Shown: positions 5,823 to 32,640 of the stretch, piece after piece | Layout of the letters: each line of letters opens with the position of its first letter | Position numbering within the stretch: the first letter of the stretch is position 1 | Virus record (IMG/VR): IMGVR_UViG_3300002933_000006 | Coordinates: 5,202 to 69,201 of that record | Source: a virus | Length of the DNA: 64,000 nucleotides | Reading direction: 5' to 3' (one strand) | Notes under the pieces: model-generated | The model's database searches: none | Seen by the model: only the letters and a program-made list of their open reading frames with translations | What the model was told of the DNA's origin: nothing | Program-made: the position numbers and the translations under genes

Positions 5823-6596
5823 TTGGCCAAACGTCAAAACCGAAGAGCTGAGGCTCTTGTAACAAATGGTAGTAACCACCACACAAGTAGTAACTTCAAA
5901 GGCAACAACACAGTAGTACTGGACTCGTATCGCAAACCGCAACAACAACGTCCAATTACACTACTTCCAAAAAGTCTGACACAAGAAACATACATAGACC
6001 TTTTAACAGATCCAACTAAACTAATAGTTTTTGCTACTGGCCCAGCGGGCACAGGCAAAACAATGCTGGCTGTATTAGCCGCACTTAAAGCTCTTAGATC
6101 TGGCGAATGTGACCGTATTGTAGTTACTCGGCCTGCTGTAGGTGTAGATGATGAACAACACGGATTTTTACCAGGAGACTTAAATGAAAAGATGGCTCCG
6201 TGGACAAGACCAATTTTTGACATTATCGGTGAATATTATCGCCAATCCGAAATCGCTAAGATGCTAGATGAACAAACTATAGAGATCTCTCCCCTAGCAT
6301 ATATGAGAGGTAGAACATTTAAGAACTCGTGGATTATTGCAGACGAAATGCAAAATGCGACACCAAGTCAGATGAAAATGTTACTCACACGATTAGGTGA
6401 AGATAGTAAGATGATTGTAACCGGTGATACACGCCAAGCAGACCGTAGCGAAAACGATAACGGATTGTTGGATTTTCAGCACCTAGTAGAAGATTACAAA
6501 AAGTGCAAATACGTTACTGGAGTAGAATTCCAGCACCGTGATATTCAACGACATCCTGCGGTGCTGGAAATCTTAAAAATCTACAAGGAGGTTTAA
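5823..6596 (+). CDS. phoH: PhoH-like ATPase
   Basis: GPAGTGKT, RIVVTRPAV, GFLPGDL.EK, PLAYMRGRTF, ADEMQN, GDTRQAD, QRHP; TTG start with GGAGG RBS. Confidence 0.95.
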   Translation: MAKRQNRRAEALVTNGSNHHTSSNFKGNNTVVLDSYRKPQQQRPITLLPKSLTQETYIDLLTDPTKLIVFATGPAGTGKTMLAVLAALKALRSGECDRIVVTRPAVGVDDEQHGFLPGDLNEKMAPWTRPIFDIIGEYYRQSEIAKMLDEQTIEISPLAYMRGRTFKNSWIIADEMQNATPSQMKMLLTRLGEDSKMIVTGDTRQADRSENDNGLLDFQHLVEDYKKCKYVTGVEFQHRDIQRHPAVLEILKIYKEV

Positions 6597-7177
6597 ACGG
6601 TAATTATCTCGTAAATTTCTTTCCAGTTTTTAACTGTACGTACATGGTCATGGTAGTGGTGCATATTATGACCATGTTCCATGAGTAAACTATTAAGTCC
6701 CAAGTCAGCGCCTAGTTCAGCGTTCTCAACTTTATCTTCGATCCAGTAGCAACCGGTATCTCTGTATGGATACAATGCCGCATCCTTAGGAGCCGCAGTA
6801 TCTAAACATACAATCTTTTGGAATGCAGTTTCGCCAAATAACTTACGTAGGTTCATTTCACGCAACTTAACAGTATTGGGATCTACACTTACCGAAGTGA
6901 TGCAATGGAATACGTATCCATGTTCCTTGTGCAACTTTTCAATATAGTGCATAGCATCACGCAAGGGCGGAAGGAATCCAATTGCGGCACTTTCGTTAAA
7001 CATCTTAATCAGACGCATAGTTTGTTCTATGCTAATTCCATAACGCTTGGCAATGCTGTAATCAAATTCGCCGCCGGGGATCTTTTCAAATCCGTGTTGT
7101 TCAATCCATATTTCAAACGCATACTCCCAGTTTAAGAGTACACCGTCTGCATCTACTAATATAACACTTTCTTTCAT
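6593..7177 (-). CDS. HAD-superfamily 5'(3')-deoxyribonucleotidase-like hydrolase
   Basis: ILVDADGVL motif I, WIEDK motif IV. Confidence 0.8.
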   Translation of the reverse strand: MKESVILVDADGVLLNWEYAFEIWIEQHGFEKIPGGEFDYSIAKRYGISIEQTMRLIKMFNESAAIGFLPPLRDAMHYIEKLHKEHGYVFHCITSVSVDPNTVKLREMNLRKLFGETAFQKIVCLDTAAPKDAALYPYRDTGCYWIEDKVENAELGADLGLNSLLMEHGHNMHHYHDHVRTVKNWKEIYEIITV

Positions 7178-7634: not shown

Positions 7635-7897
7635 TGTACAGGATCTCCACCAACGGTAAAGTTTATAAGTTTAAATTTATCAAAGCAAGTTGGGCATACG
7701 CAATTATGGCCCGGTCCACCACTTGAACTAATAGTCTTGCCACAATCACTACAAGACATAATAGCTGCTGTAGCGACCATACCCGGGCGAGGAACAATAG
7801 GATCCCAATTAGTCTTGCTTGTACGTCTATATCCAATAATTTCTTTTTTCATCTTTAACTCCATTTCAATGTGATTGTGATGATACTCGCCGGTCAT
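7631..7897 (-). CDS. Small zinc-ribbon protein
   Basis: CSDC ... CPTC pairs; start uncertain. Confidence 0.55.
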   Translation of the reverse strand: MTGEYHHNHIEMELKMKKEIIGYRRTSKTNWDPIVPRPGMVATAAIMSCSDCGKTISSSGGPGHNCVCPTCFDKFKLINFTVGGDPVQ

Positions 7898-8217
7898 TAC
7901 CACCACTTCCCGACTTCATCTGGATTGTTATAGTTCACCCAACGATTCTTATCACCGTTCCAATGTCGATTATCACGCAACTGTATATCTATACCATATC
8001 CAAATAAACTAAATGAGAATCTGGGACCGGCGTGATCTTCACCAGACCATGTTAAATCGATAGTAAGTTGAACAAGCCAATAAGCGTGTCGCTCTATCCT
8101 AAACTCAAATGTCTTATTCTTTGTAACACCGTGCTCAAGCTCAATATAAACTTTTTGCCAGTCGTTCATCTTAGACTTCCAGAACGGGTTTTTAATATCA
8201 AAACTTAAACTAATCAT
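7897..8217 (-). CDS. Hypothetical protein
   Basis: ORF in an overlapping gene chain. Confidence 0.65.
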   Translation of the reverse strand: MISLSFDIKNPFWKSKMNDWQKVYIELEHGVTKNKTFEFRIERHAYWLVQLTIDLTWSGEDHAGPRFSFSLFGYGIDIQLRDNRHWNGDKNRWVNYNNPDEVGKWW

Positions 8218-8218: not shown

Positions 8219-8434
8219 TTAACTCCACTTTAATAAAAACAAACACAGATCTTCCTCTTGAACAAATTCCACTCCACTATAACCAATGCCAATATCTTGC
8301 TGCCATCGTTGTCCATCTCCTCTCGGGCCAAAAGTTTGATCGCACCACTCATACAATTCATAAAAGTTAATAATCGGTCCGAGAAATTCTGCTATATACT
8401 TGCTAGATTGTAATTGATAGCTACGTATATTCAT
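8219..8434 (-). CDS. Small 'FxLxW-terminal' family protein (array 1)
   Basis: EWCDQTFG ... FVQEEDLCLFLLKWS. Confidence 0.75.
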   Translation of the reverse strand: MNIRSYQLQSSKYIAEFLGPIINFYELYEWCDQTFGPRGDGQRWQQDIGIGYSGVEFVQEEDLCLFLLKWS

Positions 8435-8444
8435 TATGCTATTC

Positions 8445-8732
8445 CTAATATGTCTTTGTTAAACTATCCCACACTTCGCCGTGCCAGGGTTTAAATGTTA
8501 TATTCCATTGCCAGGGACTGTCTAAGGTATTGCCCTTTGGCTTTCCAATAAGCTCAGTCCACTCACCTTGCGTATCTTCATATACTACACGATACCGCAG
8601 ACCTTGATTTATGTAAGCATACACATACTCAGCATCGTTAGTGACGCTCAAACAACCAGGGCGATTAAGATCTCGTATAAGCACAATGCCATCTTTTTTA
8701 TTAACTATTTCCCACTCAGCGTGACAACCCAT
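8445..8732 (-). CDS. Hypothetical protein embedded in array 1
   Basis: Starts at a TAATG overlap after AGGTGG; IRDL..SVTNDAE motif. Confidence 0.7.
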   Translation of the reverse strand: MGCHAEWEIVNKKDGIVLIRDLNRPGCLSVTNDAEYVYAYINQGLRYRVVYEDTQGEWTELIGKPKGNTLDSPWQWNITFKPWHGEVWDSLTKTY

Positions 8733-8911
8733 TATGACCACCTTAATAGATACATTGTTGCTAACTTGTCAGGCAATTCGATATACCATTGAGTTCGGAC
8801 AAGCATACCATTTTCTTCATGTTGACAGTCAACATCCCATCTTGGATAATGTTTGTCTAACCATTTCTCTCGTTCTCCCATCACTGGTACTGTAGTGCGT
8901 ATTTTTACCAT
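8732..8911 (-). CDS. FxLxW-terminal family protein
   Basis: Ends LPDKLATMYLLRWS; start at TAATG overlap. Confidence 0.7.
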   Translation of the reverse strand: MVKIRTTVPVMGEREKWLDKHYPRWDVDCQHEENGMLVRTQWYIELPDKLATMYLLRWS

Positions 8912-9126
8912 TATGCCCACCTCAACATAAACAACATTAAATCGTTTTCCTGAGCAAATTCTATCTCTCCGTAGGCAATACCATTTTTCCAACGTGCCTT
9001 AGGAACTGTACCAGCATAGCCGAACGCATCACGGCACCATTTCCACATTTCCTCACCGCTTGACGGAGGCTTAAACGCCGCTATATACGATGTCGATCCA
9101 CATGGTTGATATCCGTATATTTGCAT
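8911..9126 (-). CDS. FxLxW-terminal family protein
   Basis: KWCRDAFG ... FAQENDLMLFMLRWA. Confidence 0.75.
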   Translation of the reverse strand: MQIYGYQPCGSTSYIAAFKPPSSGEEMWKWCRDAFGYAGTVPKARWKNGIAYGEIEFAQENDLMLFMLRWA

Positions 9127-9383
9127 TATGCCCAACTCAATAAAAACAAAGTTGCTAATCTTTCGTCATCAAACTCTACCCACCATGTTGTACTTGTACC
9201 AGATGCCTGCCAACGATTCGCAAGATCGGTTGTTTTAGTCACAATTTTCCAGCCTTGTCCATCTGATGGGTATTTTTCATACTCATACAGCGGCAAGCCT
9301 ATATTCTTATACAACCAAGAACGAATTTCGTTTATCATATTCTCCTCGCCTAAGACATGCGGAGTGATATTAATCATAGTCAT
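9126..9383 (-). CDS. FxLxW-terminal family protein
   Basis: SWLYKNIG ... FDDERLATLFLLSWA. Confidence 0.75.
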   Translation of the reverse strand: MTMINITPHVLGEENMINEIRSWLYKNIGLPLYEYEKYPSDGQGWKIVTKTTDLANRWQASGTSTTWWVEFDDERLATLFLLSWA

Positions 9384-9649
9384 TATGCCCACTTCAACGC
9401 AAATAGCGTAGCCGTTTCGTCATTTTCAAAGTAATAAACCCGAGTAAGTTGCATCTCGTTAGAATTGTGATTGTGAAGCAGGCCTGCATCAACGACGGTA
9501 TTTTCGAAGTATCTACCCGGACGATCTTGAGCCAACCAAGTTGTATACTCAATAGGATCCCATTGTTTAATGCGCTTATATGTAACATGCACTTGGGCCC
9601 AGCCACGCTCTTCTAATGTCTTAACTTGATAGCCATTCCAAAATCTCAT
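9383..9649 (-). CDS. FxLxW-terminal family protein
   Basis: Ends FENDETATLFALKWA; start at TAATG overlap. Confidence 0.75.
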   Translation of the reverse strand: MRFWNGYQVKTLEERGWAQVHVTYKRIKQWDPIEYTTWLAQDRPGRYFENTVVDAGLLHNHNSNEMQLTRVYYFENDETATLFALKWA

Positions 9650-9846
9650 TATGCCCACCTTAATAAGAACAAGACTAAATCTTTTTTCTTTGTAAAATAA
9701 AATGCCAATCCATGTTGTCTCCAAGCATAGTCTTTAAATCTTTCTTCACACCACCCTCGTTGTTTGTAAGTATCTTCCCTGTTTACCTTAGCACTATATC
9801 GATATACAATTTGTTTTGTGCCATAATCAACATTTAATATGTCCAT
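9649..9846 (-). CDS. FxLxW-terminal family protein
   Basis: GWCEERF ... FTKKKDLVLFLLRWA. Confidence 0.75.
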   Translation of the reverse strand: MDILNVDYGTKQIVYRYSAKVNREDTYKQRGWCEERFKDYAWRQHGLAFYFTKKKDLVLFLLRWA

Positions 9847-9849
9847 GAA

Positions 9850-10038
9850 CTAACTCCACTTTAACGCAAATATTGTAGCATCTTCTTCACATTCAAAATA
9901 TATACCAGTTCCGCCACGTGCGTAATGGCCGTTACCTTCATAATCAACTAACCAGTGCAGTACCTGTTCATTCTTTAGTCGATTGTATGCGACGTAGGTA
10001 TAATTAACGTTTTGATCAACTATTATATTATTTTTCAT
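9850..10038 (-). CDS. FxLxW-terminal family protein
   Basis: Ends FECEEDATIFALKWS. Confidence 0.75.
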   Translation of the reverse strand: MKNNIIVDQNVNYTYVAYNRLKNEQVLHWLVDYEGNGHYARGGTGIYFECEEDATIFALKWS

Positions 10039-10220
10039 GCCCACCTTAGCAAAAACATAGTATAATCTTCTTCGCGGTCGAAGTATATAGTTTCAAATAC
10101 ACAACTCCAACGACCGCCAAAATAATCATACCCAAAATGTTTCTTACACCAGGTAGTAATTTCACTCATTTCAGCAATACCATTGTATTGCCATTTTAAA
10201 ATTTTAGTGCTTGCTAACAC
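10035..10220 (-). CDS. FxLxW-terminal family protein
   Basis: TWCKKHFG ... FDREEDYTMFLLRWA; probable GTG start in a TAGTG overlap. Confidence 0.75.
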   Translation of the reverse strand: MLASTKILKWQYNGIAEMSEITTWCKKHFGYDYFGGRWSCVFETIYFDREEDYTMFLLRWA

Positions 10221-10402
10221 TATGCCCACCTTAGCAAAAACATTGTGTAATCCCGTTTAAATCGAAAGCGACACTTAAACATATAAAATTTCCAAGTGAT
10301 GCTTGGCTCACCTACATTCTCCAGACACCAATCGATTATTTCAAGATGTTTTCGGTAATAGTCTGGTACGTCGTTGTAGTTAATTTTATATCTAAATGCC
10401 AT
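10220..10402 (-). CDS. FxLxW-terminal family protein
   Basis: DWCLENVG ... FKRDYTMFLLRWA. Confidence 0.75.
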   Translation of the reverse strand: MAFRYKINYNDVPDYYRKHLEIIDWCLENVGEPSITWKFYMFKCRFRFKRDYTMFLLRWA

Positions 10403-11073
10403 TATAACACCTTTACATAATTTAAGGTAGTAACTTTTGCTTTACTGTGATACCCATCTTCGGCATGTGACTTAACACGTCCAGAAATCTTGCCTGCTTC
10501 ACATACTCGATCTAAATCTTTAGCCCAATAAAACACTAAATTGTCGTGTTCGGTTACACCGTATACTGCCCAGCAATTGGTATTCTGGATATAACGCTTT
10601 TCAATAAGTGTAAACCCAATGGTAATTTTTTCACCAATGCGCCCAGTATAACGACTTAGCCGTTCGTATCTGGCACCAAGTTCACGCACGTGATCTCGTT
10701 GTTGATATTGATCAACTAAATGTGGTGCCCATGCAACAATACCAAGGTCACTGATTAGTATTTCTTGATTGGCTAAGACTTGATTGAGTTGCCCCAGGAA
10801 GCGATCTGGTTGCCCCTTAAGGCTTTGCATAATCACATTTTGCTCAATGTATTGAATAATGCCATTGGCTTGCTCGCGATGGAAATCATTTACAATGAAC
10901 TTACCATCAAAGGTCCTACTAAATTGTACAGATTCTGATATAAGGTGTCGATTGGAATGATGTACAACACCGTCTATTGTAACAGTATTTCTAATCACAG
11001 ATTTACTATTGTGCTCGTAAGCGGCAATCGCGGTAGCAACTACTTCTAGGGTGGGCAATGCTTTAGTCTTCAT
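10402..11073 (-). CDS. Hypothetical protein, first gene after the early promoter
   Basis: 223 aa ORF directly downstream of the promoter at 11104-11132. Confidence 0.75.
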   Translation of the reverse strand: MKTKALPTLEVVATAIAAYEHNSKSVIRNTVTIDGVVHHSNRHLISESVQFSRTFDGKFIVNDFHREQANGIIQYIEQNVIMQSLKGQPDRFLGQLNQVLANQEILISDLGIVAWAPHLVDQYQQRDHVRELGARYERLSRYTGRIGEKITIGFTLIEKRYIQNTNCWAVYGVTEHDNLVFYWAKDLDRVCEAGKISGRVKSHAEDGYHSKAKVTTLNYVKVL

Positions 11074-11103: not shown

Positions 11104-11132
11104 ATTATAGCATTATGGGAATTAATGGTCAA
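11104..11132 (-). promoter_or_regulatory. sigma70-type early promoter (repeat family), drives array 1
   Basis: TTGACC-17 nt (ATTAATTCCCATAATGC)-TATAAT. Confidence 0.85.
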
Positions 11133-19657: not shown

Positions 19658-22600
19658 TTAGGTAAAGGTACTATATTGAGGAAACTTCAAGTACTGTCCT
19701 TGATCGTCTGGGGCATAGTACTGATCTCTGAAATTAAAGAATCTAGTGGTATCTCCGTTAAATGAGGTTCTAGTAGTAACCGCGACCGATTGTACTTTGT
19801 ATATCGAATACGATGGTACATTTTGCCCAGGATTCAAAATTTGATTATAAAATAAAATAGATCCACCGTATGTACTACCAAATAAAATACGCAGGCGTTG
19901 GCTTGGGAGAATTTCTAATATTGGTAGTAAAACTACAAAATCATTGATAATTTTAATTTGCCAAATACCACCACGTTGATTTATACTTGATCTAATCTCA
20001 ATATTGGGACTAGCAATCGGTGCACTAGGCGGGGTATTAAATATTAGACTATTACCAACTACTGAATATTGATTACCGGTTTGAACTTGACCATTGACTA
20101 CTACGGTTATTGAAACCACACTAGTTTCGGCCTGGCTCATAGTAAATGTACTCTGCACATTATTTCCAGTAAATTGGTCTTGAGTAGAACTGCCATTGTG
20201 ATAGACTACAATATTTTTTGTATTTGGTGGAACTGTAGGAATAGGCGGTGGTGTAACAAATGTAATACTATTAGTTCCTATAGTATAGCTACTTGCAGAT
20301 TGCAACAATCCATTGATATATACATTTACACTTTTGCTATTTGGCGTAATATTAAACTGTGTAGTTAATCCATCCCCGGTATACAGAATACCAGTTTGCG
20401 AGCTTTCTGTATAGCCAGGCACAATATTATAAGTATCATATCCTTCGGCATCGTATCCTTCGATTGGTACAGTTAAAATACTATCGCCAATCCATGCATC
20501 TGTATAGTCAACCCAACCATCGTATGCTCCGGCATTTTCAAAATTTTCTTGTTTGGCAAATATTATAGTATCGCCATCTTGAAAGTTAGTGACTCCATCT
20601 AATCCGCCATTGGCATTGATATAGCTAACAAGTCTTCCGTTAATTTGATTAAACGGAACAGTCACAGCATAACTAACAGAAGCAACTAATGTTCCAATAT
20701 TTTGATTTGGTAATACATCAAATGTAGTTTCTCTACCTAAATCAAATCGTTTGGTTGTTGTATTAAAGTTTGTTGTATAGAAATCATCAACAATATATCT
20801 ATCAACTGTGAAATTAATACGGTTAAAATTGATTCCCGAATTACGCAATCTATATGCAATTAATTTAGCAGCGCCAGGAATAGTATATGCTAAAACTACA
20901 GCTTTAGTAAATCCCAATGGTGGTGCAAATTTGTTTATATTAGTTGTGTCTGGCTGATTACTAGTCATCCAATTTGGTAAACTACTTTGATCGTAATATC
21001 CAACATTGCTAATTAATTGTTTAACCATATTATCTGAACTGTTTGGATATATAATTTTATAATTGTTTCCATTGGCATCTATATAAGGGTTTGTTATTGT
21101 ATTCGTTAAATCCAGCGGTGACACTGGTCCAATACCACTTGAGTTTTCCTCAGGGTCAATGACATTAACATAAACTACTTCATACTTAACATTGTAATTA
21201 CTATCCAATGCAACGGCTGTACTTATATCACCAAAGGTATATGTTTTAGTATAATGATTTTTAATAATAGCATTAGCATACGTAGACATGTCGTCTGGAT
21301 TTAATCCAGGTAAAAATAACATTTCGATATCGTCACTAACACCAAACCAAGCATCATCGGGGCGATAAATTAATTCAGGTACAAAAATTTCAGTGTTGTT
21401 CATTACACTATTAAAGATCTGTCTTTGATCAGTTGCAGGCATTGCTTTTAAATAGAGATTATTGTATGGCGCAATATCGATGATATTAAGAGTTAGAGTA
21501 AATTCTCGAGTTGACGTAGCACTTGGTGGAGTTAATATACTACCATCACTACCATATACAGTATCTGCTGTAGCAACTTCTACAGTAAATTTATAAACTC
21601 GGTCCAATGTAAATGTATCTCCGTCGATTGTAGTAGCATAATCATCTAAGCTAAAAGCTTCAAATGTTACTCGCCCGGACAGCAAACCTAAATATCTATT
21701 GTTTTGTTTAGATGTTATTAATTCAATCCCTTGAGGCAACCTAATAGGAATTCCAGCAGCATCAAGCAAAGTATACACAAGTGGTTTACCTTCGATGCTA
21801 ACGGCTTCGATGAATAACTCACTAACAGACCCATTGTCTATAGTTCCTAAATTTTCAGGAGTAACCCAATTGATATTATTGTTTACATCGCCGAGTACCG
21901 GCAAACTGAAATAATATGGAACACTGGAATATTTAATACCATTTCTAGTTTTACTTACAACAATACCAAATCTGTAATTTGAAAATGATGAGCTCTGTGT
22001 ATTTAATAATCCGTATACCCACCCAGTTTGAGAATCTAGTAGTACCCCAGGTAAATTAGTTTTCGATGTTCCGCTAGGATCAAAGCTATCAAACCCGATA
22101 CCGGTACGCGGAGTACCAAGTGTACCTTCCGATTCGGGTGTACCGCCTGGGCCAGTACCATTATTATCAAAACCTTCATCGGCACCAGTTACGTAAGCAT
22201 CAAAGGTACCTACTGTATTTGATAAACTATATGTTAGTGTGTCGCCTTGGAAATCAAGCCCGGTAAATTTAAATGCGTAGTAGCTTCCACCTCTACCAAC
22301 AGGTAATGTAGTAACAGTATTCAATAATACAGGAATGTAATTATTAGTTGCATCAACTAGTAAGAATGTATTATCTGCACTAAATTGTGTATTGTCAGCT
22401 GTAAAGCCTGTTCTACTAACAACATTAATTATATAGTTTTGTAAATCGTAGTTAGCACCATCAAATGCACGAATTGTAAAACTATAACTTAACGTTTGGC
22501 TCAATTGATTAAAATCATATGGCCCAAAGTCGTATTCTTGTTTAACTGTTAATCCGCCTTCACCAACATATTGAGATATAGTACCGGTACCCGGATTGGG

Positions 22601-23803
22601 TAAATCTTGACCATTATGAATAGCAGTAAATATTGTACCGACCGTATTTGTTGTTGCTCCATATAAAGTAAAATCGGTTGTGCCTAAACTTTGTATTTGG
22701 TATTGTTGTCCAAATACAAGATATGGGGCAGAAATAACCATATTGTATATACTTGCAGTACCAGTACCAGTACCAATAGCAGTAGCCGTAAATACTGTAC
22801 CAACAATGTTATCTGTCGCTCCAACTGTTTTAAAATTTGTTGTTCCTATGCTACTAATTTGATAGACTACATTCGCTACTAGTGAACTAGCAGGAACAAT
22901 ATTATCACCAGTGCCGGCATCATACCCGGATGGCCCAAATTGGCTTTCTATTACAGCTGGTAGTATGTATCCACTTAACAAACCTGTTGAGTCTAATGTA
23001 ATACCTGGTGGCAACATACCAATGTTAGACCAAGTTATGATAGTATTAGGATTTGGTTCTACTACAGTTAATTGCTGACTGTAGTAGCTACCATCAAAGA
23101 ATGATCCTAAATTTTTAACATTTGCACTAAATGGTTCAATGACTGGACCAAACACGTTAGTTATGCTTAAACTAAATGCTCTATCTCTAATATGTCCTTG
23201 ACTACTTGTTGCTCTTATTGTAAATCTAAAATCTTGTGCAGTATTTGTTGTAATTGCAGTTGTTAAAGTTGGAACTCCTTGTAGATACCCAATTGAAGTT
23301 GGGACACCATTTACGGTACCAGTGGCAACTACTTGCATCCCGGGAGGTAACTCGCCAGAAATAAATTTAAATGTAGTAGTAACATTAGCCTGTGTTTCAG
23401 CAACCTCCAATGGTAACTGATAAAATTCACCATTCGGTACAGTACCCAACGATCCACTAGGTGTTACCCATGAAAAATCTGCATTTACAACGTTTGTAAT
23501 TATTAAACTAAAACTTCTATCAACTGGGGTTAAATTATTACTAGTAGAAAGTCTAATTATAAAATTATAAGTTAGTGTAGTAAAGTTATTATTACTAGGA
23601 GTGCTATACCCAGGTGTACCAGAAATAACACCTGTTGCAGAATCGAGAGTTAACCCAGGAGGTAGCTCACCGCCGATGAGTGTATAAGTTAGAATGCCAC
23701 CATTATTAGTAGTATCTACTGCTAGTAATGTAACCGATTCTAATAGACCAATTGGTAAATTACCAATTGTGCCCGACGGAGTAACCCAACTTAGTTGTGC
23801 CAT
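19658..23803 (-). CDS. Large virion protein with putative Ig-like (He_PIG/cadherin-like) repeats
   Basis: Repeated WVTPSG.LG and G.LPPGL.L...G.ISG.P ... FTIRA ... R.FSL.I units over 1381 aa. Confidence 0.85.
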   Translation of the reverse strand: MAQLSWVTPSGTIGNLPIGLLESVTLLAVDTTNNGGILTYTLIGGELPPGLTLDSATGVISGTPGYSTPSNNNFTTLTYNFIIRLSTSNNLTPVDRSFSLIITNVVNADFSWVTPSGSLGTVPNGEFYQLPLEVAETQANVTTTFKFISGELPPGMQVVATGTVNGVPTSIGYLQGVPTLTTAITTNTAQDFRFTIRATSSQGHIRDRAFSLSITNVFGPVIEPFSANVKNLGSFFDGSYYSQQLTVVEPNPNTIITWSNIGMLPPGITLDSTGLLSGYILPAVIESQFGPSGYDAGTGDNIVPASSLVANVVYQISSIGTTNFKTVGATDNIVGTVFTATAIGTGTGTASIYNMVISAPYLVFGQQYQIQSLGTTDFTLYGATTNTVGTIFTAIHNGQDLPNPGTGTISQYVGEGGLTVKQEYDFGPYDFNQLSQTLSYSFTIRAFDGANYDLQNYIINVVSRTGFTADNTQFSADNTFLLVDATNNYIPVLLNTVTTLPVGRGGSYYAFKFTGLDFQGDTLTYSLSNTVGTFDAYVTGADEGFDNNGTGPGGTPESEGTLGTPRTGIGFDSFDPSGTSKTNLPGVLLDSQTGWVYGLLNTQSSSFSNYRFGIVVSKTRNGIKYSSVPYYFSLPVLGDVNNNINWVTPENLGTIDNGSVSELFIEAVSIEGKPLVYTLLDAAGIPIRLPQGIELITSKQNNRYLGLLSGRVTFEAFSLDDYATTIDGDTFTLDRVYKFTVEVATADTVYGSDGSILTPPSATSTREFTLTLNIIDIAPYNNLYLKAMPATDQRQIFNSVMNNTEIFVPELIYRPDDAWFGVSDDIEMLFLPGLNPDDMSTYANAIIKNHYTKTYTFGDISTAVALDSNYNVKYEVVYVNVIDPEENSSGIGPVSPLDLTNTITNPYIDANGNNYKIIYPNSSDNMVKQLISNVGYYDQSSLPNWMTSNQPDTTNINKFAPPLGFTKAVVLAYTIPGAAKLIAYRLRNSGINFNRINFTVDRYIVDDFYTTNFNTTTKRFDLGRETTFDVLPNQNIGTLVASVSYAVTVPFNQINGRLVSYINANGGLDGVTNFQDGDTIIFAKQENFENAGAYDGWVDYTDAWIGDSILTVPIEGYDAEGYDTYNIVPGYTESSQTGILYTGDGLTTQFNITPNSKSVNVYINGLLQSASSYTIGTNSITFVTPPPIPTVPPNTKNIVVYHNGSSTQDQFTGNNVQSTFTMSQAETSVVSITVVVNGQVQTGNQYSVVGNSLIFNTPPSAPIASPNIEIRSSINQRGGIWQIKIINDFVVLLPILEILPSQRLRILFGSTYGGSILFYNQILNPGQNVPSYSIYKVQSVAVTTRTSFNGDTTRFFNFRDQYYAPDDQGQYLKFPQYSTFT

Positions 23804-23804
23804 A

Positions 23805-26039
23805 TTAAATAATCACCGCTGTAATAACTTTTTCGCCATCTTCTGTGTTTGTTTCGATTGCTTTAGCAAATACAGCCTGACCGTATGAGGTATCTGTGCC
23901 AACACTTACTGCAAATCCGGCATTGCCTGCAGTAACTAAGCTGTCGCCTTTAGTAACTGGACCATATACTTTAACCGGAATACGTCCTCTTAATGCAACC
24001 GGCAATCCACTTGCTTCGCTATTCATTAAGTATGCAGGGTTAGTAGAAACGGCACCTGCAACACGAGCATCTGCAAATATTGTAGTAGTTGTGATTTCTT
24101 GACTTCCACCAAATATAACAACAGTACCCGGCTCATAGACCGAATCAGTTGCATATATTTCTGCTAAGTCGGCGTATAATGCTGTAGTTGCTGTGGCAAA
24201 GACTGTATTAAATGCTGCACCAATGGCACCGATGTTGCCGGTACCGCTTGTACCACTGTGAGTAATACTTGGAACAGTAATGCCTGTAGTAGTTAGTGAA
24301 TTAAGACCAAAGTATGCTACTGTGTTAACGTTAGCACTTGTATAGAGACTTGTAATTTGTGTTTGCTGAGCGCCAGCATTGGCAAACAATGTAGTAATAT
24401 TATTTGTTGCTGTGCCTAAATTTGCATTAGTAGCAATTTGATACGCACCAATGTTTGCATTTGTACTGGCAATAGCCAATTGATGTCCGCCAATGTTTGC
24501 ATTAACAGAAATTTCATATGCGCCAACGTTAGCGTCTAGTGTATTTACGTGGGTATATACTGTACCGAGATTGGCACTAATTGTTTGTACTGCGGTATTG
24601 GACCAAGTTTCGTACGCACCAATGTTAGCATCTAATGTGTTTACGTGATTAAAAATTACACCAACGTTAGCACTATCTGCAATTTGATACGCACCGATAT
24701 TAGCAGATAATGTTTGTACCTGTCCAACAGTTGGAATACCGGTTAAGAAACTACCATCCCCTAAGTAATAACCAGAGCTTATGTTTCCGCTTACAATAAC
24801 ATTTCCTGCATAGGTATTAGCTGTAGATGTTAAAGTTGTAGCAGATATACTAAACAATCCGCTCATGGCTACACCAGTTGCTGTAATACTACTAGTAACT
24901 GTTAAATTTTGTATTCCGATACTAGTAGCACTGATGCCCGATGCATTCAATGTTGATCCATTTGTTAAACTCAAACCAGTCAATGTGCCAACGCTAGTAA
25001 TATTTGGTTGAGCAGCAGTTTGCACGGCTCCATATAACGATCCAACAAAACCACCTTGTGATGTTACATTACCAAAAACACCAATACCACCGTATGGTAC
25101 AACAATAGCACCAGTAAGATAGGAGATACTTGCTGCCGCCGACGGATACACAATATTACCAGTAATGAGAGCACTAGTACCATTATAAATTGCACCAATA
25201 CCGCCACTACTTGTAGTGATAACTTGACTGCCGCCAATATACATATTTGTAGTAGCGTTAACATTACCACCAACTGCCAAGTTGGCCGCAATGCCGGCAC
25301 CGCCTGCAACAATTAATGCACCTGTGGTTGTGCTTGTTGATTGAGTAGTGTTACTGAATAAGCCACTACCAAACTGTAAGTTACCGTATACCCCACCAAC
25401 AACAATATTATTACCCGATGTAGTATCTCTATCAGTAATCTTATAAATGAAGTTATTAGTTGTATATTGATGTCCAAAGAAAGCATAGGTATTAGCACCA
25501 TTATAATCGGATGTAATATTTCCTAGAATACCTGTATCTTGTAAGTCACCGACAAATGCGTTAGCATGGATCTTTAAAATACCTGCGTCAGTGGATTGTG
25601 AAATTTGATTAGTAGACACAGTTTGCAGAACATATAAGTTAGCAAAATGTCGGGTAGGACTACCAAGGTTATATACGCCATCAACAGTTGGAATAATATT
25701 TCCACTAACATAAGTATTACCGGCAAGATATGTTACGCCCGAACTATATAATCCTGCATTGGCAATAATATTAGCAGAGTAACTATTACCAGTAAAACTA
25801 GAAGTTGTACCAGTGGCATTGGCAATAAATGAATTGGTAATGTTACTGAATGTAGCTTGAAAATTAAACTCAACGTTAGCATTGGTCCAATCTTGATTAA
25901 ATTGTGATAGTTGTGCAGAAATATTACCAAAGTTACTATCAACTTTATTAAACGCATCGCGAATATTATCGCCAGTGCCATCATTGGGGCGAGTACCCTC
26001 ATTGATGTTTATAATTTGTCCATTATTCCAGAATGCCAT
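23805..26039 (-). CDS. Baseplate/tail fibre protein (T4 gp9/gp10-like N-terminus)
   Basis: INEGTRPNDGTGDNIRDAFNKVDSNF; TTTGALIVAGG, QPNITSVGTL; C-terminal YADLAE.Y..D..YEPGTVV domain. Confidence 0.8.
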   Translation of the reverse strand: MAFWNNGQIININEGTRPNDGTGDNIRDAFNKVDSNFGNISAQLSQFNQDWTNANVEFNFQATFSNITNSFIANATGTTSSFTGNSYSANIIANAGLYSSGVTYLAGNTYVSGNIIPTVDGVYNLGSPTRHFANLYVLQTVSTNQISQSTDAGILKIHANAFVGDLQDTGILGNITSDYNGANTYAFFGHQYTTNNFIYKITDRDTTSGNNIVVGGVYGNLQFGSGLFSNTTQSTSTTTGALIVAGGAGIAANLAVGGNVNATTNMYIGGSQVITTSSGGIGAIYNGTSALITGNIVYPSAAASISYLTGAIVVPYGGIGVFGNVTSQGGFVGSLYGAVQTAAQPNITSVGTLTGLSLTNGSTLNASGISATSIGIQNLTVTSSITATGVAMSGLFSISATTLTSTANTYAGNVIVSGNISSGYYLGDGSFLTGIPTVGQVQTLSANIGAYQIADSANVGVIFNHVNTLDANIGAYETWSNTAVQTISANLGTVYTHVNTLDANVGAYEISVNANIGGHQLAIASTNANIGAYQIATNANLGTATNNITTLFANAGAQQTQITSLYTSANVNTVAYFGLNSLTTTGITVPSITHSGTSGTGNIGAIGAAFNTVFATATTALYADLAEIYATDSVYEPGTVVIFGGSQEITTTTIFADARVAGAVSTNPAYLMNSEASGLPVALRGRIPVKVYGPVTKGDSLVTAGNAGFAVSVGTDTSYGQAVFAKAIETNTEDGEKVITAVII
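24400..24720 (-). repeat. Intragenic tandem repeat (xxxAN[IVL]Gxxxx, about 7-8 copies) in the fibre gene
   Basis: TLSANIGAYQI, TLDANIGAYET, TISANLGTVYT, TLDANVGAYEI, SVNANIGGHQL, STNANIGAYQI, ATNANLGTATN. Confidence 0.75.
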
Positions 26040-26114
26040 AGCTTTGATCCTTATATACGTTATTTATCGCATATAAGACAAAGCTGGTTTTTGGTTTGGA
26101 TTTAAGTGGGTAGT

Positions 26115-26438
26115 TTATACAGAGAAACTGCTACCGCACCCGCATGTAGATACAGCCTGCGGATTATTAATTACAAAGCTAGATCCCATTAATTCGTTTT
26201 TATAATCAATAGTGGCGCCAGCTAGATACTGCCCACTCATAGAATCGACTAGAAGTTTAACTCCATCAACGTCGAAGCTAAAATCATCTTCGTTTTGTTC
26301 TTCGTCGAGTGTAAAACCGTAACTAAAGCCGCTACACCCCCCGCCCTGTACAAATACTCGTAGATTTATTGCAGGGTTATTTTCTTCTGCAAGAATATCT
26401 TTAATTTTTAATTTCGCTGATTCTGTAATTGTTATCAT
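26115..26438 (-). CDS. erpA: A-type Fe-S cluster carrier (ErpA/IscA/HesB)
   Basis: [24 protein letters not shown]. Confidence 0.93.
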
Positions 26439-27001
26439 AATAGGTTACATTGGACTGTATACCAGTCAATAATTTTCCAGAAGTTATCAATGTACTCAGC
26501 TTTCTTTTCAGCATAATCTAGATTGTAAGCGTGTTCCCACATATCCAAAATGAGTACTATATCTGTACGAACTTCGTGGTTTTTGATTGTTTTGATTTTG
26601 CCAGACTTAGTTAAGTAAACCCAACCAGACCCTTGCAACTTCATTGCTTCTTCTTTAAATTGCTTTTTAAAGTCAATAAATGATTTAAAATTTTTATTAA
26701 TAAGATCGTTTACTTTGCCCACAGGACGATTGCCCTTTTCTGGAACGCTAGGAGTACCCGGTTTACCAAATTGTCCAAAATAAACAGTATGCAACCATGC
26801 TCCGGCACGATTAAACTCGTGGTCACCTTCGCCTTTGTTAAAACGGTCAACATAACCCTTGAACAGTTTACCATAGTGATATTCTATAGTTTTCTTGCTC
26901 ATTACTGGTGCCAATGCTGATTCAGAGTACCGTAACGGAATCTGAAAGAAAGTTTCCTTGCTTTTTGCTTCTAATAGGTTTAATGTATCGCGAATGTCCA
27001 T
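26435..27001 (-). CDS. Fe/Mn superoxide dismutase
   Basis: [18 protein letters not shown] and LDMWEHAY retain all four metal ligands; probable start MDIRD at 27001 just after ATAAATA. Confidence 0.9.
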
Positions 27002-27005
27002 ACTA

Positions 27006-27224
27006 CTATTTATTGCGATAAACAACTCTTCCGCGGCTTAGATCGTATGTTGACATTTCAACATCTACTCGATCACCTAGTAATATGCGTATATTATTCT
27101 GTCTTAATCTCCCGCCAATTGTGGCAGTAATTTTGTGTCCATTTTCTAGTATTACACGAAACATAGCGTTTGGTAGGCATTCCTCAACAACGCCCGACAT
27201 TTCAATCATATCATCTTTAGCCAT
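27006..27224 (-). CDS. infA: Translation initiation factor IF-1
   Basis: [29 protein letters not shown] ... [24 protein letters not shown]. Confidence 0.95.
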
Positions 27225-27269
27225 TTAAATCCAGATTACATCTTTAAAAATTTTCATATACTTCTCCTT

Positions 27270-27668
27270 TTAACGTCGCATAGTACTTATCTCTACAGCC
27301 TCTTCATCGCTGAAAATAGGCACAGCATTACTTTTGTGCATAGTGCCAATACCTTTAACTTTAGTACCTGTGTACTCTTGATTGGCAGGAGTAGTGCAAG
27401 CTACCCATCCTGTGTCTTGACTGACAATCTTAGGAGTTTCTCGACCTGGTGGAGTTTTAGGTGCGCCCATTGACCAGTCACCTTTGCGCTTAGGTGCAGG
27501 TTTAGTATTACTAAATCTAGGTTTCATTCGATCAAATTCTTTGAGTTTGAGTTCCCAATCAAGTTTGCGCTGTTCGGCTTTATGTTTAGCTTCAGCCGAT
27601 TCCCATTTTTTTGGACCACGTTTTTTGCCAGTGGTACTAAGCCACGGTCCTTCGATATGCATTGTCAT
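27270..27668 (-). CDS. Conserved hypothetical phage protein
   Basis: YTGTKVKGIGTMHKSNAVPIFS motif. Confidence 0.75.
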   Translation of the reverse strand: MTMHIEGPWLSTTGKKRGPKKWESAEAKHKAEQRKLDWELKLKEFDRMKPRFSNTKPAPKRKGDWSMGAPKTPPGRETPKIVSQDTGWVACTTPANQEYTGTKVKGIGTMHKSNAVPIFSDEEAVEISTMRR

Positions 27669-27675
27669 AATAAGT

Positions 27676-27704
27676 ATTATACTTTATTGGGGTTTATTGG
27701 GCAA
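27676..27704 (-). promoter_or_regulatory. sigma70-type promoter
   Basis: TTGCCC-17 nt-TATAAT, ending 7 nt before the ATG at 27668. Confidence 0.6.
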
Positions 27705-28049
27705 GCGAGCGATTTGCGGTTCCCAATTATGTTTAGCACATAATATATGATTGGTAGATTCGAAATAAAAGATATGTTGCGGGAATCGTGTTTTAAGAAT
27801 ACTGATAATTTCTTGATCGGACTGCCCTTGTGCAAGGAACTTATGATTATCTTGATCGTACCAGTAATATATATCTCCCCGCTTTTCAATTTCAACTCTG
27901 TGTACTATTTCGTCTAAGTGTTTAAGTAACCGTCGCTCTAGTTCATCTGCGGTTGACGACAACCTGTTGGTTAATCCAAAAGTAACTTGCACAATGGCAT
28001 AAGTGCAAGCAATCCAAAGCAATAGTATTGTTGTGTCTTCAAATAACAT
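27684..28049 (-). CDS. Hypothetical protein with N-terminal transmembrane helix
   Basis: Hydrophobic residues 7-26; FLAQG motif. Confidence 0.7.
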   Translation of the reverse strand: MLFEDTTILLLWIACTYAIVQVTFGLTNRLSSTADELERRLLKHLDEIVHRVEIEKRGDIYYWYDQDNHKFLAQGQSDQEIISILKTRFPQHIFYFESTNHILCAKHNWEPQIARLPNKPQ

Positions 28050-28050
28050 A

Positions 28051-28707
28051 TTAATCCCAAAGTGTTCTAAAATATTTTCCGAATAATCTAAGTCCGTTTT
28101 CGATGCGTTTGTGATGCGCTTCTAAACCTGCTCGATCAACTTTTAACTTGTGTATACTTTTATTAAAGTCTTTTTCTTTATTACTTTCGCTGTGATCATA
28201 AAATTGCCTTTCGCCGTTGTCATCGTCTGCTAACTGCTCAAAAGTCCAAATAAGTTCGGTCATTACCCAGCTATAGCGAGCTTCTGCATAGTTGTCCCAA
28301 TCGTACTTATTCTTGATACCTTTACGAGCGCCAGGTGCAGTACTACGCAGTTCTTTTGGTACATCCTTATTGTCAACCCATCCATAACCATGCTTTTGCG
28401 TATTAAGTTTTAACAACATAGGATGAATAATAAGTGCAAGGGTACCATCCATGCCCCAGACATCGTAATTGTCGATCTTAATATACTGAGTACGCTTACG
28501 CTTACTTTGCACCCATTCACAAAAATTAGCTAACCAACTAGAGTCACCATTCTTATCTTCGGCTAACCATGTGCCAAAATCATGCACCCAGTCAGGCTTA
28601 CTCTTGATCCCATATTCGTCTGGTACTTTCTTAACCCAGAAGCATAGTATCTCGGCTATTTGATATGGACCGATCCAATTTACATACTTGCCGAGATACA
28701 CTTTCAT
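28051..28707 (-). CDS. Conserved hypothetical phage protein
   Basis: IKIDNYDVWGMD.TLA.II.PML ... GLRLFGKYFRTLWD. Confidence 0.8.
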   Translation of the reverse strand: MKVYLGKYVNWIGPYQIAEILCFWVKKVPDEYGIKSKPDWVHDFGTWLAEDKNGDSSWLANFCEWVQSKRKRTQYIKIDNYDVWGMDGTLALIIHPMLLKLNTQKHGYGWVDNKDVPKELRSTAPGARKGIKNKYDWDNYAEARYSWVMTELIWTFEQLADDDNGERQFYDHSESNKEKDFNKSIHKLKVDRAGLEAHHKRIENGLRLFGKYFRTLWD

Positions 28708-28708
28708 T

Positions 28709-28924
28709 TTATTTGTTGTTTAGCTTGTCGAGACGTTCATTGATTTCTGCTTGAATCTTAACATATTTGTAAGAGCTGAAGAAAAATACTGCTACCCCAA
28801 GTCCAATTATCACATTACCTATTCCAATTAATGTAGTAAGGACTGCAAATGCAAGTCCTGCACACACTGAAATACCAATTGTTTTTAGCAATTCTAAAAT
28901 TGCTTGTTTTGTATATTTTGTCAT
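28709..28924 (-). CDS. Small two-TM membrane protein
   Basis: Two hydrophobic segments; downstream of an early promoter. Confidence 0.65.
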   Translation of the reverse strand: MTKYTKQAILELLKTIGISVCAGLAFAVLTTLIGIGNVIIGLGVAVFFFSSYKYVKIQAEINERLDKLNNK

Positions 28925-28973
28925 ACTATTTTTCCTTATTCCGGAGTTATCATTGAGTTACTACTACAACTAC

Positions 28974-29002
28974 ATTATACATTATTGGGAATTAAAGGTC
29001 TA
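28974..29002 (-). promoter_or_regulatory. sigma70-type early promoter (repeat family)
   Basis: TAGACC-TTTAATTCCCAATAATG-TATAAT. Confidence 0.75.
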
Positions 29003-29237
29003 GCCACCTATATATAAGCGTCATTGCTTCGTCATTATTGATTGCATAGTATAAGGCTATGCTGTCCCGCATACCTAAATCGCCATCTGCGTTCATAATC
29101 TTATCTACTTCGGCGAAGTAGTTTAAGAACGCTTGTCCTAGTCTGTAGTCCGGAGTACTAAGTAATTGCCAAACATAGTGCTCCTGGAATTCAGCCCATT
29201 TTGCTTTGGATATTTTATATTGATTTGGATTAGTCAT
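28992..29237 (-). CDS. Hypothetical protein
   Basis: YRLGQAFLNYF motif. Confidence 0.65.
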   Translation of the reverse strand: MTNPNQYKISKAKWAEFQEHYVWQLLSTPDYRLGQAFLNYFAEVDKIMNADGDLGMRDSIALYYAINNDEAMTLIYRWLDL

Positions 29238-29275
29238 AATTTAATAAATACTTGTTTACTGGATTGGGATGTTAA

Positions 29276-29557
29276 ATGAATAATATATTTTTTAGTGGGT
29301 TAAGTGGTTTAAATATTGTAATTGGGTGTGCAATGTTTTTATTACTATTCACTGATATTACTAAAAATTGGAGTACCCTGGCTCGAATCGGGTTTTATAC
29401 CATGTCTCTTGGTTTACTAGGACAGGCCATTTATGTTATTGCTGGCACGTCTCTAGAAGCACCAATCTGGGAACAACTATGGATATTTAAAGATTTAGGA
29501 GTAGCCATTTTTACTTTTGATTTAATTATACAGTTTATATCAAGGCATACCAAATAG
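29276..29557 (+). CDS. Small three-TM membrane protein (holin-like candidate)
   Basis: Three hydrophobic segments and a basic C-terminus; ATAAATA upstream; counter-oriented to neighbours. Confidence 0.5.
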   Translation: MNNIFFSGLSGLNIVIGCAMFLLLFTDITKNWSTLARIGFYTMSLGLLGQAIYVIAGTSLEAPIWEQLWIFKDLGVAIFTFDLIIQFISRHTK

Positions 29558-29561
29558 GTAT

Positions 29562-29759
29562 TTATGCCCATTTCAACTGAAATATCATTGCATCCGATTC
29601 TTCTTTAAAAGCAAAATCTATTAGCCGGGTGTTATTGGGGTGCATATCTGAACCAATATAACTTGCACACCGGTCCATTGCCCATTCTTGCATTTCAGAA
29701 AACCGAAGATCAAACTTCGCTGGGATTATTGTTTCTCTGTTGACAGTGACTATATGCAT
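29562..29759 (-). CDS. FxLxW-terminal family protein (array 2)
   Basis: Ends FKEESDAMIFQLKWA. Confidence 0.75.
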   Translation of the reverse strand: MHIVTVNRETIIPAKFDLRFSEMQEWAMDRCASYIGSDMHPNNTRLIDFAFKEESDAMIFQLKWA

Positions 29760-29971
29760 TATGAATACTTTAAACAAAATAAACTTACTGCTGGATTTTC
29801 GGGATCATAAAAACGCATTTCAATATAACCTTTAGATACAAAGTTGCAATCGTAATCTCGATTTACCTCTAACCCGTGTTCTTTAAGTTCTTCTTTGATG
29901 CGTAGAGTTTTAACTGCCCAAAGTTCTTGGCCTCTTTCATTTCTATCGTGTGGTATTCTAATTATCTTCAT
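29759..29971 (-). CDS. FxLxW-terminal family protein
   Basis: Ends FYDPENPAVSLFCLKYS. Confidence 0.7.
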   Translation of the reverse strand: MKIIRIPHDRNERGQELWAVKTLRIKEELKEHGLEVNRDYDCNFVSKGYIEMRFYDPENPAVSLFCLKYS

Positions 29972-30216
29972 AACCATTTCAATCTGAATAATGTTGCATC
30001 TGCTTCATCTTTATAGTATAGCGTCTTATTATGATAAAAGCAATCGGGTAAAGTTTCACCGACCCACGCTTTTAGTTCTATATCTCCGTATACCCAGTTG
30101 CCCGGCCCATAAAGTTTCTTATAGTCAGCATATTTCAATTCTATTAGAAATGCCGCATCAAGGGAATCAGCCATTTGTTGCGCTAGATCATTGGCGATTG
30201 CTTCTTCTAAATTCAT
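29968..30216 (-). CDS. FxLxW-terminal family protein with capsid-helix-like N-terminus
   Basis: MNLEEAIANDLAQQMADSLDAAFL ... YKDEADATLFRLKWL. Confidence 0.7.
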   Translation of the reverse strand: MNLEEAIANDLAQQMADSLDAAFLIELKYADYKKLYGPGNWVYGDIELKAWVGETLPDCFYHNKTLYYKDEADATLFRLKWL

Positions 30217-31915: not shown

Positions 31916-31925
31916 CTATCGTCCT

Positions 31926-32606: not shown

Positions 32607-32640
32607 TGTTATGCTACCGTCTGGATAGTAAATAACATCC

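Follow-up and report, generated by a model that had tools for sequence, protein, structure and literature searches.

The 64,000-nucleotide (nt) stretch of DNA analysed here (the window) comprises bases 5202-69201 of the 69,201-base IMG/VR virus record IMGVR_UViG_3300002933_000006. The record is 19% complete by CheckV, so the window is a fragment of a jumbo phage; the closest cultured relatives belong to the Pseudomonas phage PA5oct group, with 58.9% identity in the clamp loader protein, and the sequence is present in freshwater metagenome runs. The minus strand carries nearly all genes of the window. Among them are arrays of very small genes that end alike, with codons for Leu-(Arg/Lys)-Trp-x followed by a stop codon that mostly overlaps the start of the next gene, and this repeated junction, which is the 3' end of one large unnamed family of mini-proteins (family 1), is the subject of the present analysis. 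Array 1 was delineated from its open reading frames (ORFs), an iterated hidden Markov model (HMM) and an alignment (A1). It has the following parts, with energies given for the duplex with the anti-Shine-Dalgarno (anti-SD) sequence.

8219-10402, minus strand: array 1, nine family-1 mini-genes plus the non-family gene 8445-8732
10220-10402, 10035-10220, 9850-10038, 9649-9846, 9383-9649, 9126-9383, 8911-9126, 8732-8911 and 8219-8434, minus strand: the family-1 genes of array 1
10218-10234, minus strand: joint CTA AGG TGG GCA TAG-TG, end of gene 10220-10402 and GTG start of the next gene, -1 overlap, -8.1 kcal/mol
10035-10049, minus strand: joint CTA AGG TGG GCA TGA, ATGA overlap (-4), with 22 nt identical to the 10220 joint
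9647-9663, minus strand: joint TTA AGG TGG GCA TAA-TG, -1 overlap, -8.2 kcal/mol
9381-9397, minus strand: joint TTG AAG TGG GCA TAA-TG, a Lys variant with a weaker Shine-Dalgarno (SD) sequence, -4.8 kcal/mol
8909-8925, minus strand: joint TTG AGG TGG GCA TAA-TG, -1 overlap, -8.3 kcal/mol
8730-8746, minus strand: joint TTA AGG TGG TCA TAA-TG, serving the non-family gene 8445-8732, -8.4 kcal/mol

A sequence-only reading of this DNA had named 14 positions for the junction (8732, 8911, 9383, 9649, 10035, 10220, 33072, 33284, 33947, 34456, 34695, 35337, 35513 and 39650), and every one of them proved to be the stop codon of a minus-strand ORF ending in L-(R/K)-W-x. The sequence TTRARGTGGGCAT occurs six times, on the minus strand only, compared with 0.01 expected matches, and none of 100 shuffles reached six; ARGTGGDSWTRA has 11 matches versus 0.40 expected. 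A codon-level search for Leu-(Lys/Arg)-Trp-x-stop yielded 22 matches on the minus and one on the plus strand, versus about 0.5 per shuffle, and 21 of the 22 are ends of family genes, the remaining one being an orphan at 7855. The identity of about 20 nt that had been noticed between the 10035 and 10220 junctions is exact over 22 nt, ATGTTTTTGCTAAGGTGGGCAT. The proposed consensus, AGG TGG GCA followed by TAATG or ATGA, describes a real motif, but it fits only part of the set: in the 31 family members with the motif at the C-terminal end, the codon at -3 is AGG in 13, AGA in 2, AAA in 7, AAG in 6 and another codon in 3. Also absent from the earlier list were the members at 8219, 9126 and 9850 in array 1, the entire array 29562-31381, and those at 32641, 34250, 35725, 36958, 37140, 37358, 38955 and 39405. 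The family-1 loci beyond array 1, and the orphan, are as follows.

29562-31381, minus strand: array 2, family-1 genes of the Lys type with tails LKWA, LKYS, LKWL, LKYL and LKFK; the intergene overlaps are all -4 or -1, without an SD
32641-35970, minus strand: array 3, eleven family-1 genes, mostly LRW with AGG TGG; 33747-33950 (family 2) and 34984-35340 are interspersed
36958-37534, minus strand: three family-1 genes with the variant tails LYWL, LQWL and LRFV (HMM and alignment)
38955-39853, minus strand: family-1 genes 39650-39850 (RLRWAH), 39405-39653 (TLKWA) and 38955-39212 (QLKT internal, followed by 23 residues)
7855-7869, minus strand: orphan joint TTG AAA TGG AGT TAA, then AG ATG, preceding an internal ATG of a zinc-finger-like gene

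Unrelated genes (8445, 34984 and 33747) had been said to use the same junctions. They do start at the joint of the preceding family gene, but their own ends lack the motif, and 33747 is a member of a second, unrelated paralog family.

The HMM was built from the last 50 residues of the proteins and, after iteration across every ORF of the window, settled on 29 members; four more (29759, 33469, 37140 and 39405), which have the same tail and align with the rest, were added by eye. Alignment A1 thus holds 33 sequences, which are 15-44% identical to its first member, and the number of paralogs in the window is at least 33. The proteins have about 60-145 amino acids (aa), a predicted beta-alpha-beta-beta-alpha topology, and a conserved W(C)xExFG, a central RW, a strand xFxF and the end (D/E)xDAxxFxL(R/K)W(A/S/L). 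In an AlphaFold2 model based on A1 (mean predicted local distance difference test score, pLDDT, 82.4) the motif closes the last helix, at residues 50-60. Against 1.84 billion representatives, the family profile matches 3,082 clusters (E<=1e-3), and nearly all of the 150 matches listed reach the C-terminus.

None of these proteins carries a name. Pfam and PHROGs yielded no family-wide match for 16 members from the window and 24 relatives from the databases, Foldseek found nothing at E<=1e-3 for the family-1 fold in the PDB, and the best Z of VIA-align, 5.9, lies inside its noise range, so that no convincing solved fold emerged from it. A DNA search of GenBank phages gave no match to the array DNA and tblastn with one family member gave no match; a word-indexed protein search with the family profile gave only 12 matches, none of them named. 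BFVD contributed only uncharacterised phage proteins and the protein atlas only unnamed viral clusters. As to function, accessories for host takeover or anti-defence would be our guess. One member, 32641-33072 (minus strand; 143 aa), is extended at its N-terminus by a segment with an above-threshold match to the Pfam model of the Gp23 major capsid protein (model positions 2-35; 32.2 bits, E = 1e-7), and similar extensions are found in the database relatives P0025, P0069, P0087 and P0113; a capsid-type leader joined to a mini-protein in this way might direct it into the head.

The primary reason for the motif is that it forms the conserved C-terminal helix of a protein family, and the conservation of the tail is mainly at the protein level. 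The codon at -2 is TGG in 24 of the 31 motifs, TTT, TAT and TAC in 2 each and ATG in 1, and thus Trp is swapped for Tyr, Phe or Met in 7 cases; the Leu codon at -4 varies as well (TTA 14, TTG 14, CTA 2, CTG 1). In 38955-39212 and in the fused two-domain relatives P0028, P0048, P0153 and P0160 the motif is internal, for example ...FILKWLASDDD...FILKWL in P0028. The three members in PA5oct keep (D/E)A..F.L and end in LYFS..., LQFGL and LIHK, with an ATGA overlap in only one of them; they have no LRW tail, and therefore the protein family predates the LRW/AGG joint.

The choice among synonymous codons adds a second layer. The sequence-only reading had suggested comparing AGG usage in the tails with genome codon usage, and this comparison came out in its favour. 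In a simple in-house gene model with 127 minus-strand genes, from which codon background and gene starts were taken, the 844 Arg codons are 42.9% CGT, 19.4% AGA and only 4.6% AGG (39/844; 39/203 of the AGR codons), whereas 13 of the 15 Arg codons at -3 are AGG, two are AGA and none is CGN. The cleanest control is offered by internal Arg-Trp pairs, in which the dipeptide and the genes are both the same: AGG is used in 0 of 14 such pairs in family genes, and in 3 of 17 in other genes. The neighbouring positions are biased too, with TTG for 14 of the 31 Leu codons at -4 (background 16.7%) and GCA for 12 of the 13 Ala codons at -1 (background 44%), and the Lys codons at -3 (AAA 7, AAG 6) are near background. 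In relatives, represented by 77 non-redundant motif-bearing members from other contigs, AGG accounts for 26 of the 41 Arg codons at -3, compared with 6.7% in those loci. Binomial p-values for the tail codons are very small but ignore shared ancestry, and were given little weight. A putative dual coding, in which the same bases specify the helix end and the ribosome-binding site (RBS) of the next gene, is well supported by these sequence statistics.

AGG at -3 places GAGG or AAGG at the phage's usual SD distance before the overlapping start. At the 93 starts that are not preceded by a family gene, SD tetramers begin mainly at -12 to -10 (41 of the counted occurrences), and such a tetramer is present at 36 of the 93 starts, versus a background of 8%; AAGG or GAGG begins at -12 in TAATG joints and at -9 in ATGA joints. 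With the canonical anti-SD, the duplex energies of the AGG-TGG joints are -7.0 to -8.4 kcal/mol. The spacing at the 33 family junctions is -4 in 16, -1 in 10, 0 to +10 in 4 and more than 40 in 3, and the fraction of -4 and -1 overlaps, 26/33, is considerably higher than that of the non-family junctions, 34/93 (Fisher p = 3.6e-5). The earlier statement that the last codons of array genes comprise an SD-like sequence and the overlapping start of the next gene is supported for the AGG-TGG joints, but it does not extend to the family as a whole, where an SD tetramer is found in only 15 of 30 tight junctions.

The arrangement has much in common with termination-reinitiation coupling (Huber et al. 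2019, PMC6728339; Brown & Wade 2025, PMC12548453). According to these two papers, -4 or -1 spacing and an SD inside the upstream gene are the norm for coupled gene pairs, and SD removal lowered re-initiation in four of five E. coli pairs. The family joints share with the systems described there the co-directional orientation and the overlaps of -4 (NTGA) or -1 (TAATG/TGATG), and about half of the tight ones (15 of 30) also have an SD in the last codons of the upstream gene. In contrast to generic pairs, the SD would here be supplied by one conserved C-terminal peptide of a large paralog family, and therefore the same joint recurs dozens of times; a further difference is that the synonymous choice AGG is fixed across the family. 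The coupling mechanism is already known, and the joints would represent a family-wide variant of it. No description of the family or of a family-wide dual-coded tail turned up in the literature, in searches that were aimed at neither.

Family 1 is not the only one with tails of this kind. A further paralog family, family 3, which is unrelated to family 1, ends in HFGVE(E/Q/K), encoded by CAT TTY GGA GTT GAA NAA TGA, and family 2 is interspersed with family 1 (L numbers denote the sequences compared with the window).

44594-44620, minus strand: family-3 tail ...HFGVEE, CAT TTC GGA GTT GAA GAA TGA, with GGAG at the usual SD position and an ATGA overlap
44594-44794, 49525-49740 and an ORF ending at 45416, minus strand: family-3 copies of the window; others lie in L012 (1309-5688) and L041 (~9300-9740)
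33747-33950, 32445-32606, 32240-32422 and 31628-31915, minus strand: family 2 (PKW..FA..P.R.I.G.W.W...Y...FDIL....); also in L012 (15076-15623)

The Gly codon of the family-3 tail is GGA in all ten non-redundant copies from the window, L012 and L041, versus 25% genome-wide; GGAG lies at -11 before the ATGA overlap, which the stop codon forms in nine of the ten. The tails of family 3 are built like those of family 1, and therefore dual-coded tails seem to be a habit of the lineage and not the peculiarity of one family. A relationship of family 1 to the FDIL family, family 2, was considered and rejected (hhalign probability 0.1). An exact 17-nt match on the minus strand, AGTATGCTACAATGTTT, which encodes YATMF, occurs at 33771-33787 in the family-2 gene 33747-33950 and, 497 nt apart, at 34268-34284 in the family-1 gene 34250-34459. 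Both copies are just upstream of the tail, and the rough chance expectation is about 0.005 in 13.5 kb; neighbouring 3' ends may once have exchanged sequence here.

The explanation that accounts best for these observations, and that we consider rather probable, is a dual-coded 3' end of a paralog family, with any role in recombination being a by-product. The last helix ends in F-x-L-(R/K)-W-(A/S/L) directly before the stop codon, and the genes lie head to tail in hypervariable stretches that are probably read, from a promoter-like motif, as long polycistronic RNAs. With nearly every stop overlapping the next start as ATGA or TAATG, the terminating ribosome would therefore re-initiate on the next cistron. 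In the Arg subset, codons fixed as (TTG/TTA) AGG TGG make the tail spell GAGG or AAGG(TGG), an SD at the distance usual for this phage, so that the same bases would encode the end of a structural helix and the RBS of the following gene. As a by-product, the same 11-22 nt recur in direct orientation every 180-300 nt, and such recurring joints are natural sites for the in-register loss or gain of a gene by short-homology recombination or replication slippage. We regard the recombination role as a side effect of paralogous genes being tightly packed, rather than as the work of a dedicated cassette system that dispenses with an integrase.

The transcription units assumed in this mechanism would start from a promoter-like motif, TTAATTCCCAATA...TATAAT, which often follows a GAC(A/C) box and is present in nine copies, all on the minus strand, compared with 0.04 expected.

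11104-11125, 28974-28995, 39856-39877, 47507-47528, 47855-47876, 50802-50823, 53169-53190, 54151-54172 and 54321-54342, minus strand: copies of the promoter-like motif

Eight of the nine lie between minus-strand genes, and the copy at 50802 is opposite a plus-strand ORF. In L012, intergenic sites align with related copies, and the motif probably represents a class of early or middle promoters that belongs to the phage itself. The copy at 11104-11125 lies upstream of 10402-11073 and array 1. That at 39856-39877 is upstream of 39650-39850, and the next one follows only at 28974-28995, so the arrays between these two sit behind one copy; long polycistronic units are thus probable, and simple promoter-like matches inside the arrays may also exist. 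A pattern scan of 27500-41500 revealed no promoter-plus-terminator pair at the joints.

Comparison with relatives shows what happens at the joints over time. For array 1 there is no close comparator, because the best relatives of the flanking gene in the metagenome scan have 73-74% identity. In the strain represented by L008, L010 and L087, 73% identical in the flanking 223-aa protein, the slot between the 223-aa gene and the zinc-finger-like gene holds one family gene, which ends TTG AGG TGT GCA TAA-TG, whereas the corresponding slot of the window holds nine family genes, 8445-8732 and 7897-8217. In L088, which is more distant, the wider slot between homologues of the 223-aa gene and of 6593-7177 is occupied by only one gene, of 78 aa. 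Contigs of runs X3-X6 cover 21001-41000 with at least 99% identity, but they are short, and two contig joints found in X5 only were treated as uninformative (32583->34456, skipping 1872 nt, with a shorter side of 21 letters, and 35847->35939, skipping 91 nt).

L012 is about 80% identical to the window, and blastn reveals seven indels between the two, in arrays 2-5. Of the resulting 14 breakpoints, 11 are within 3 nt of a stop/start junction; ends of family-1 genes account for five or six of these 11, compared with 24 of the 40 genes of the region. One case is the non-family cassette 31926-32243, which is flanked by two exact copies of a 17-nt junction repeat where L012 has one copy and no cassette; the window has two copies of the 15-nt core of the repeat and the L012-type strain has one.

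32240-32256, minus strand: copy 1 of the 17-nt junction repeat TAAAGGACGATAGATGA, comprising the last codons of the family-2 gene 32240-32422 and the ATGA start of 31926-32243
31912-31928, minus strand: copy 2 of the repeat, after the stop codon of 31926-32243, holding the start of 31628-31915

The three-gene block 35337-35970 is flanked by GTGATGA and 30655-30882 by an imperfect repeat that reflects the paralogous N-termini, and the remaining two cases have flanking repeats of 1-3 nt. The order of orthologs is collinear in the window, L012 and L014, so there is gain and loss but not shuffling; the genes are gained, lost and replaced without permutation, and the shuffling that the sequence-only reading had proposed is not supported. 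One exception to collinearity should be noted, i.e., the homologue of the non-family gene 28051-28707, which in L012 and L016 lies upstream of the phosphoesterase gene. This 218-aa gene is downstream of the arrays in the window (28051-28707) and in L014 (15696-16373) and directly upstream of the metallophosphoesterase gene in L012 (9343-9999; 79% identical) and L016 (9424-9999), and is thus a non-family gene relocated across about 11 kb.

Loss or gain of a gene through microhomology at a joint, which the earlier reading had also envisaged, has been seen directly once. Among the loci compared, L030 and L031 are the only pair that is both close (95.9% identical) and different inside a family-1 array. 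A 206-nt family-1 gene that is bounded in L030 by two exact 16-nt copies of TTTGAGGTGGGCATGA is missing in L031, which has one copy. As the gene absent from L031 and the gene next to it are diverged paralogs, a deletion between the two joints is the simplest reading. In the same pair a family-3 gene is inserted in register at an ATGAAC junction, with its own tail serving the downstream gene, and one replaced segment starts within a TTGACA promoter box, resembling the behaviour of promoter-early stem-loop (PeSL) cassettes. In another pair, L033 and L035, a 156-nt difference is bounded by TAAGGAG. In the phosphoesterase protein, the clades of these pairs share only about 44-47% identity with the window, and this distance means that the pairs show the process in the family, not that the window genome underwent it.

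Several observations weigh against a dual-coded joint with in-register gene turnover. Half of the tight family junctions (15/30) have no SD tetramer, and SD pairing after family genes is not stronger than at other tight junctions (mean -4.63 versus -3.90 kcal/mol; Mann-Whitney p = 0.16). In the Lys-type array 29562-31381 the duplex energies are only +1.7 to -1.2 kcal/mol, yet every intergene junction overlaps, and 34 of the 93 non-family junctions overlap too; the joint is thus not universal, contrary to the earlier claim. The gene starts rest on the simple gene model, the duplex energies assume that the host has the canonical anti-SD, and all 24 listed runs with the sequence are DNA, so that translational coupling at the family joints is inferred from the sequence. 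In relatives, AGA still makes up 11 of the 41 Arg codons at -3, and the tail codon counts lack phylogenetic independence. As to recombination, the expected clustering of breakpoints at the junction motif did not materialise: AGG-TGG joints account for 2 of the 11 junction breakpoints versus 7 of the 40 junctions, and therefore the breakpoints cluster at gene boundaries generally and not at this motif. Selection alone would also leave breakpoints at gene boundaries. In addition, one L012 breakpoint is 32 nt inside the ORF 32240-32422 and two, around 37358-37534, are not resolvable, and the clean joint-to-joint indel belongs to a clade that is about 47% identical in the neighbouring phosphoesterase protein, not to the window genome.

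One alternative, along the lines of the sequence-only reading, is that the joint is primarily a "universal plug" at the DNA level, kept for the insertion, deletion and shuffling of genes without an integrase, as an analogue of PeSL and possibly via excised mini-circles. The cassette 31926-32243 has the footprint expected of the integration or excision of a circle, and the L030/L031 difference of one family gene between two 16-nt joints agrees with it, as do the non-family genes 8445, 34984 and 33747 that start at such joints, the orphan joint at 7855 that persists without an intact family gene, and the SD-bearing tails in two unrelated families. However, the motif is kept where no start follows (in the fused two-domain proteins and 38955-39212), conservative residue changes occur in it although they abolish the SD (Arg to Lys encoded by AAA, Trp to Tyr or Phe), the SD is missing from half of the junctions, orthologs are collinear in the window, L012 and L014, and AGG-TGG joints are not enriched among the breakpoints. 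Moreover, the paralogs are only 15-44% identical to the first member, which means that the arrays are old and not rapidly turning over. A plug of this kind is therefore unlikely. We are similarly doubtful about a broader version, in which the tails of several unrelated mini-gene families of this freshwater jumbo-phage clade (L-R-W with AGG TGG, HFGVEE with GGAG and FDRLKDDR with AAGGA) would have been selected as portable joints that provide both translational coupling and homology for the integrase-free capture or loss of single genes, a coding counterpart of the PeSL mini-circle mechanism.

PeSL cassettes mediate modular shuffling in the hyperplastic regions of T4-type phages (Arbiol et al. 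2010, PMC2839356; Comeau et al. 2014, PMC4122927). The likeness to the joints consists of short repeats between small non-essential ORFs of hypervariable regions, of indel ends between close relatives that lie in the repeat (16 nt in L030/L031, 17 nt in the window and L012), and of one cassette flanked by direct copies. In contrast to the non-coding promoter plus terminator of PeSL described there, the joint consists of the last four codons, the SD and the stop/start overlap, and has no spacer, promoter or hairpin, while the phage of the window has its separate conserved promoter-like motif in nine copies.

Deletion between short direct repeats can occur via replication slippage or short-homology recombination, and exact repeats in direct orientation lie on both sides of the L030/L031 indel (16 nt) and of the 31926 cassette (17 nt). 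The repeats are functional joints here, and therefore each event removes or adds a whole gene in register.

Alternatively, L-R-W might be kept for folding or function of the protein alone, with an incidental likeness to an SD. The conservation across 3,082 clusters, the Lys-type members that work without any SD, and the fact that TGG is forced because Trp has a single codon would all be accounted for. The codon statistics nonetheless make this very improbable: AGG is used in 13 of 15 Arg codons at -3, but in 0 of 14 internal Arg-Trp pairs and 4.6% genome-wide, TTG and GCA are enriched as well, the SD lies at the distance preferred by the genome, and the unrelated HFGVEE family fixes GGA in ten of ten copies. 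There is equally little to be said for concerted evolution, i.e., gene conversion among neighbouring paralogs that keeps the 3' ends alike and thus generates the identities of about 20 nt. Such conversion could have left the 22 identical nt between the adjacent genes 10220-10402 and 10035-10220, and the 17-nt match just upstream of the tails of 34250-34459 (family 1) and 33747-33950 (family 2). The synonymous positions of the tails are not homogenised, however, as Leu is encoded by four different codons and -5 is highly variable; the 3'-terminal 44-50 nt are only 60-78% identical between copies, and the 22-nt identity is mostly forced by identical residues that have one or two codons (M, F, W). 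The observed versus expected counts and the shuffles rule out that the motif arose by chance or from base composition.

A dual-coded 3' end of family 1 would be of interest for several reasons. It would be a clean natural case of dual coding, in which a rare codon, AGG, is fixed across a large family, apparently to build the RBS of the next gene, and the other Arg-Trp pairs provide an internal control in the same genes. It would also explain in simple terms how extended series of small accessory genes stay expressed in jumbo phages despite the turnover of individual genes: every gene would carry the translation signal of its successor, and the shared joint would allow loss and gain in register. 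Family 1 is itself large, unnamed and apparently phage-borne, in that its matches with a record are phage proteins, and merits annotation.

A few minor observations concern the surroundings of array 1 and the relatives. The minus-strand gene 7897-8217, which lies downstream of the array, ends with GKWW followed by TAA TGA; 14 codons further on, ITLKWS-stop is encoded in the same frame (7852-7906), and this is the orphan joint. The zinc-finger-like gene has an orthologue in L008 whose start aligns with the ATG that follows the orphan (MKKEIIGY...), and in L008, L010 and L087 this orthologue comes directly after a family gene. Truncation of a family gene or duplication of a joint could each have produced the orphan, and more than one start is conceivable for the zinc-finger-like gene. 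Past the stop codon of the non-family gene 8445-8732, at 8434-8450 on the minus strand, lies GAATAGCATAATG, which finishes with the same 8 nt (GCATAATG) as the family joint; rather tentatively, it may be a decayed copy of the joint that flanks the cassette 8445-8732. Finally, between two strains that are 99.9% identical, L007 (1744-2346) and L010 (2887-2888), a 601-nt indel in a large tail-fibre-like gene is bounded by a 2-nt repeat.

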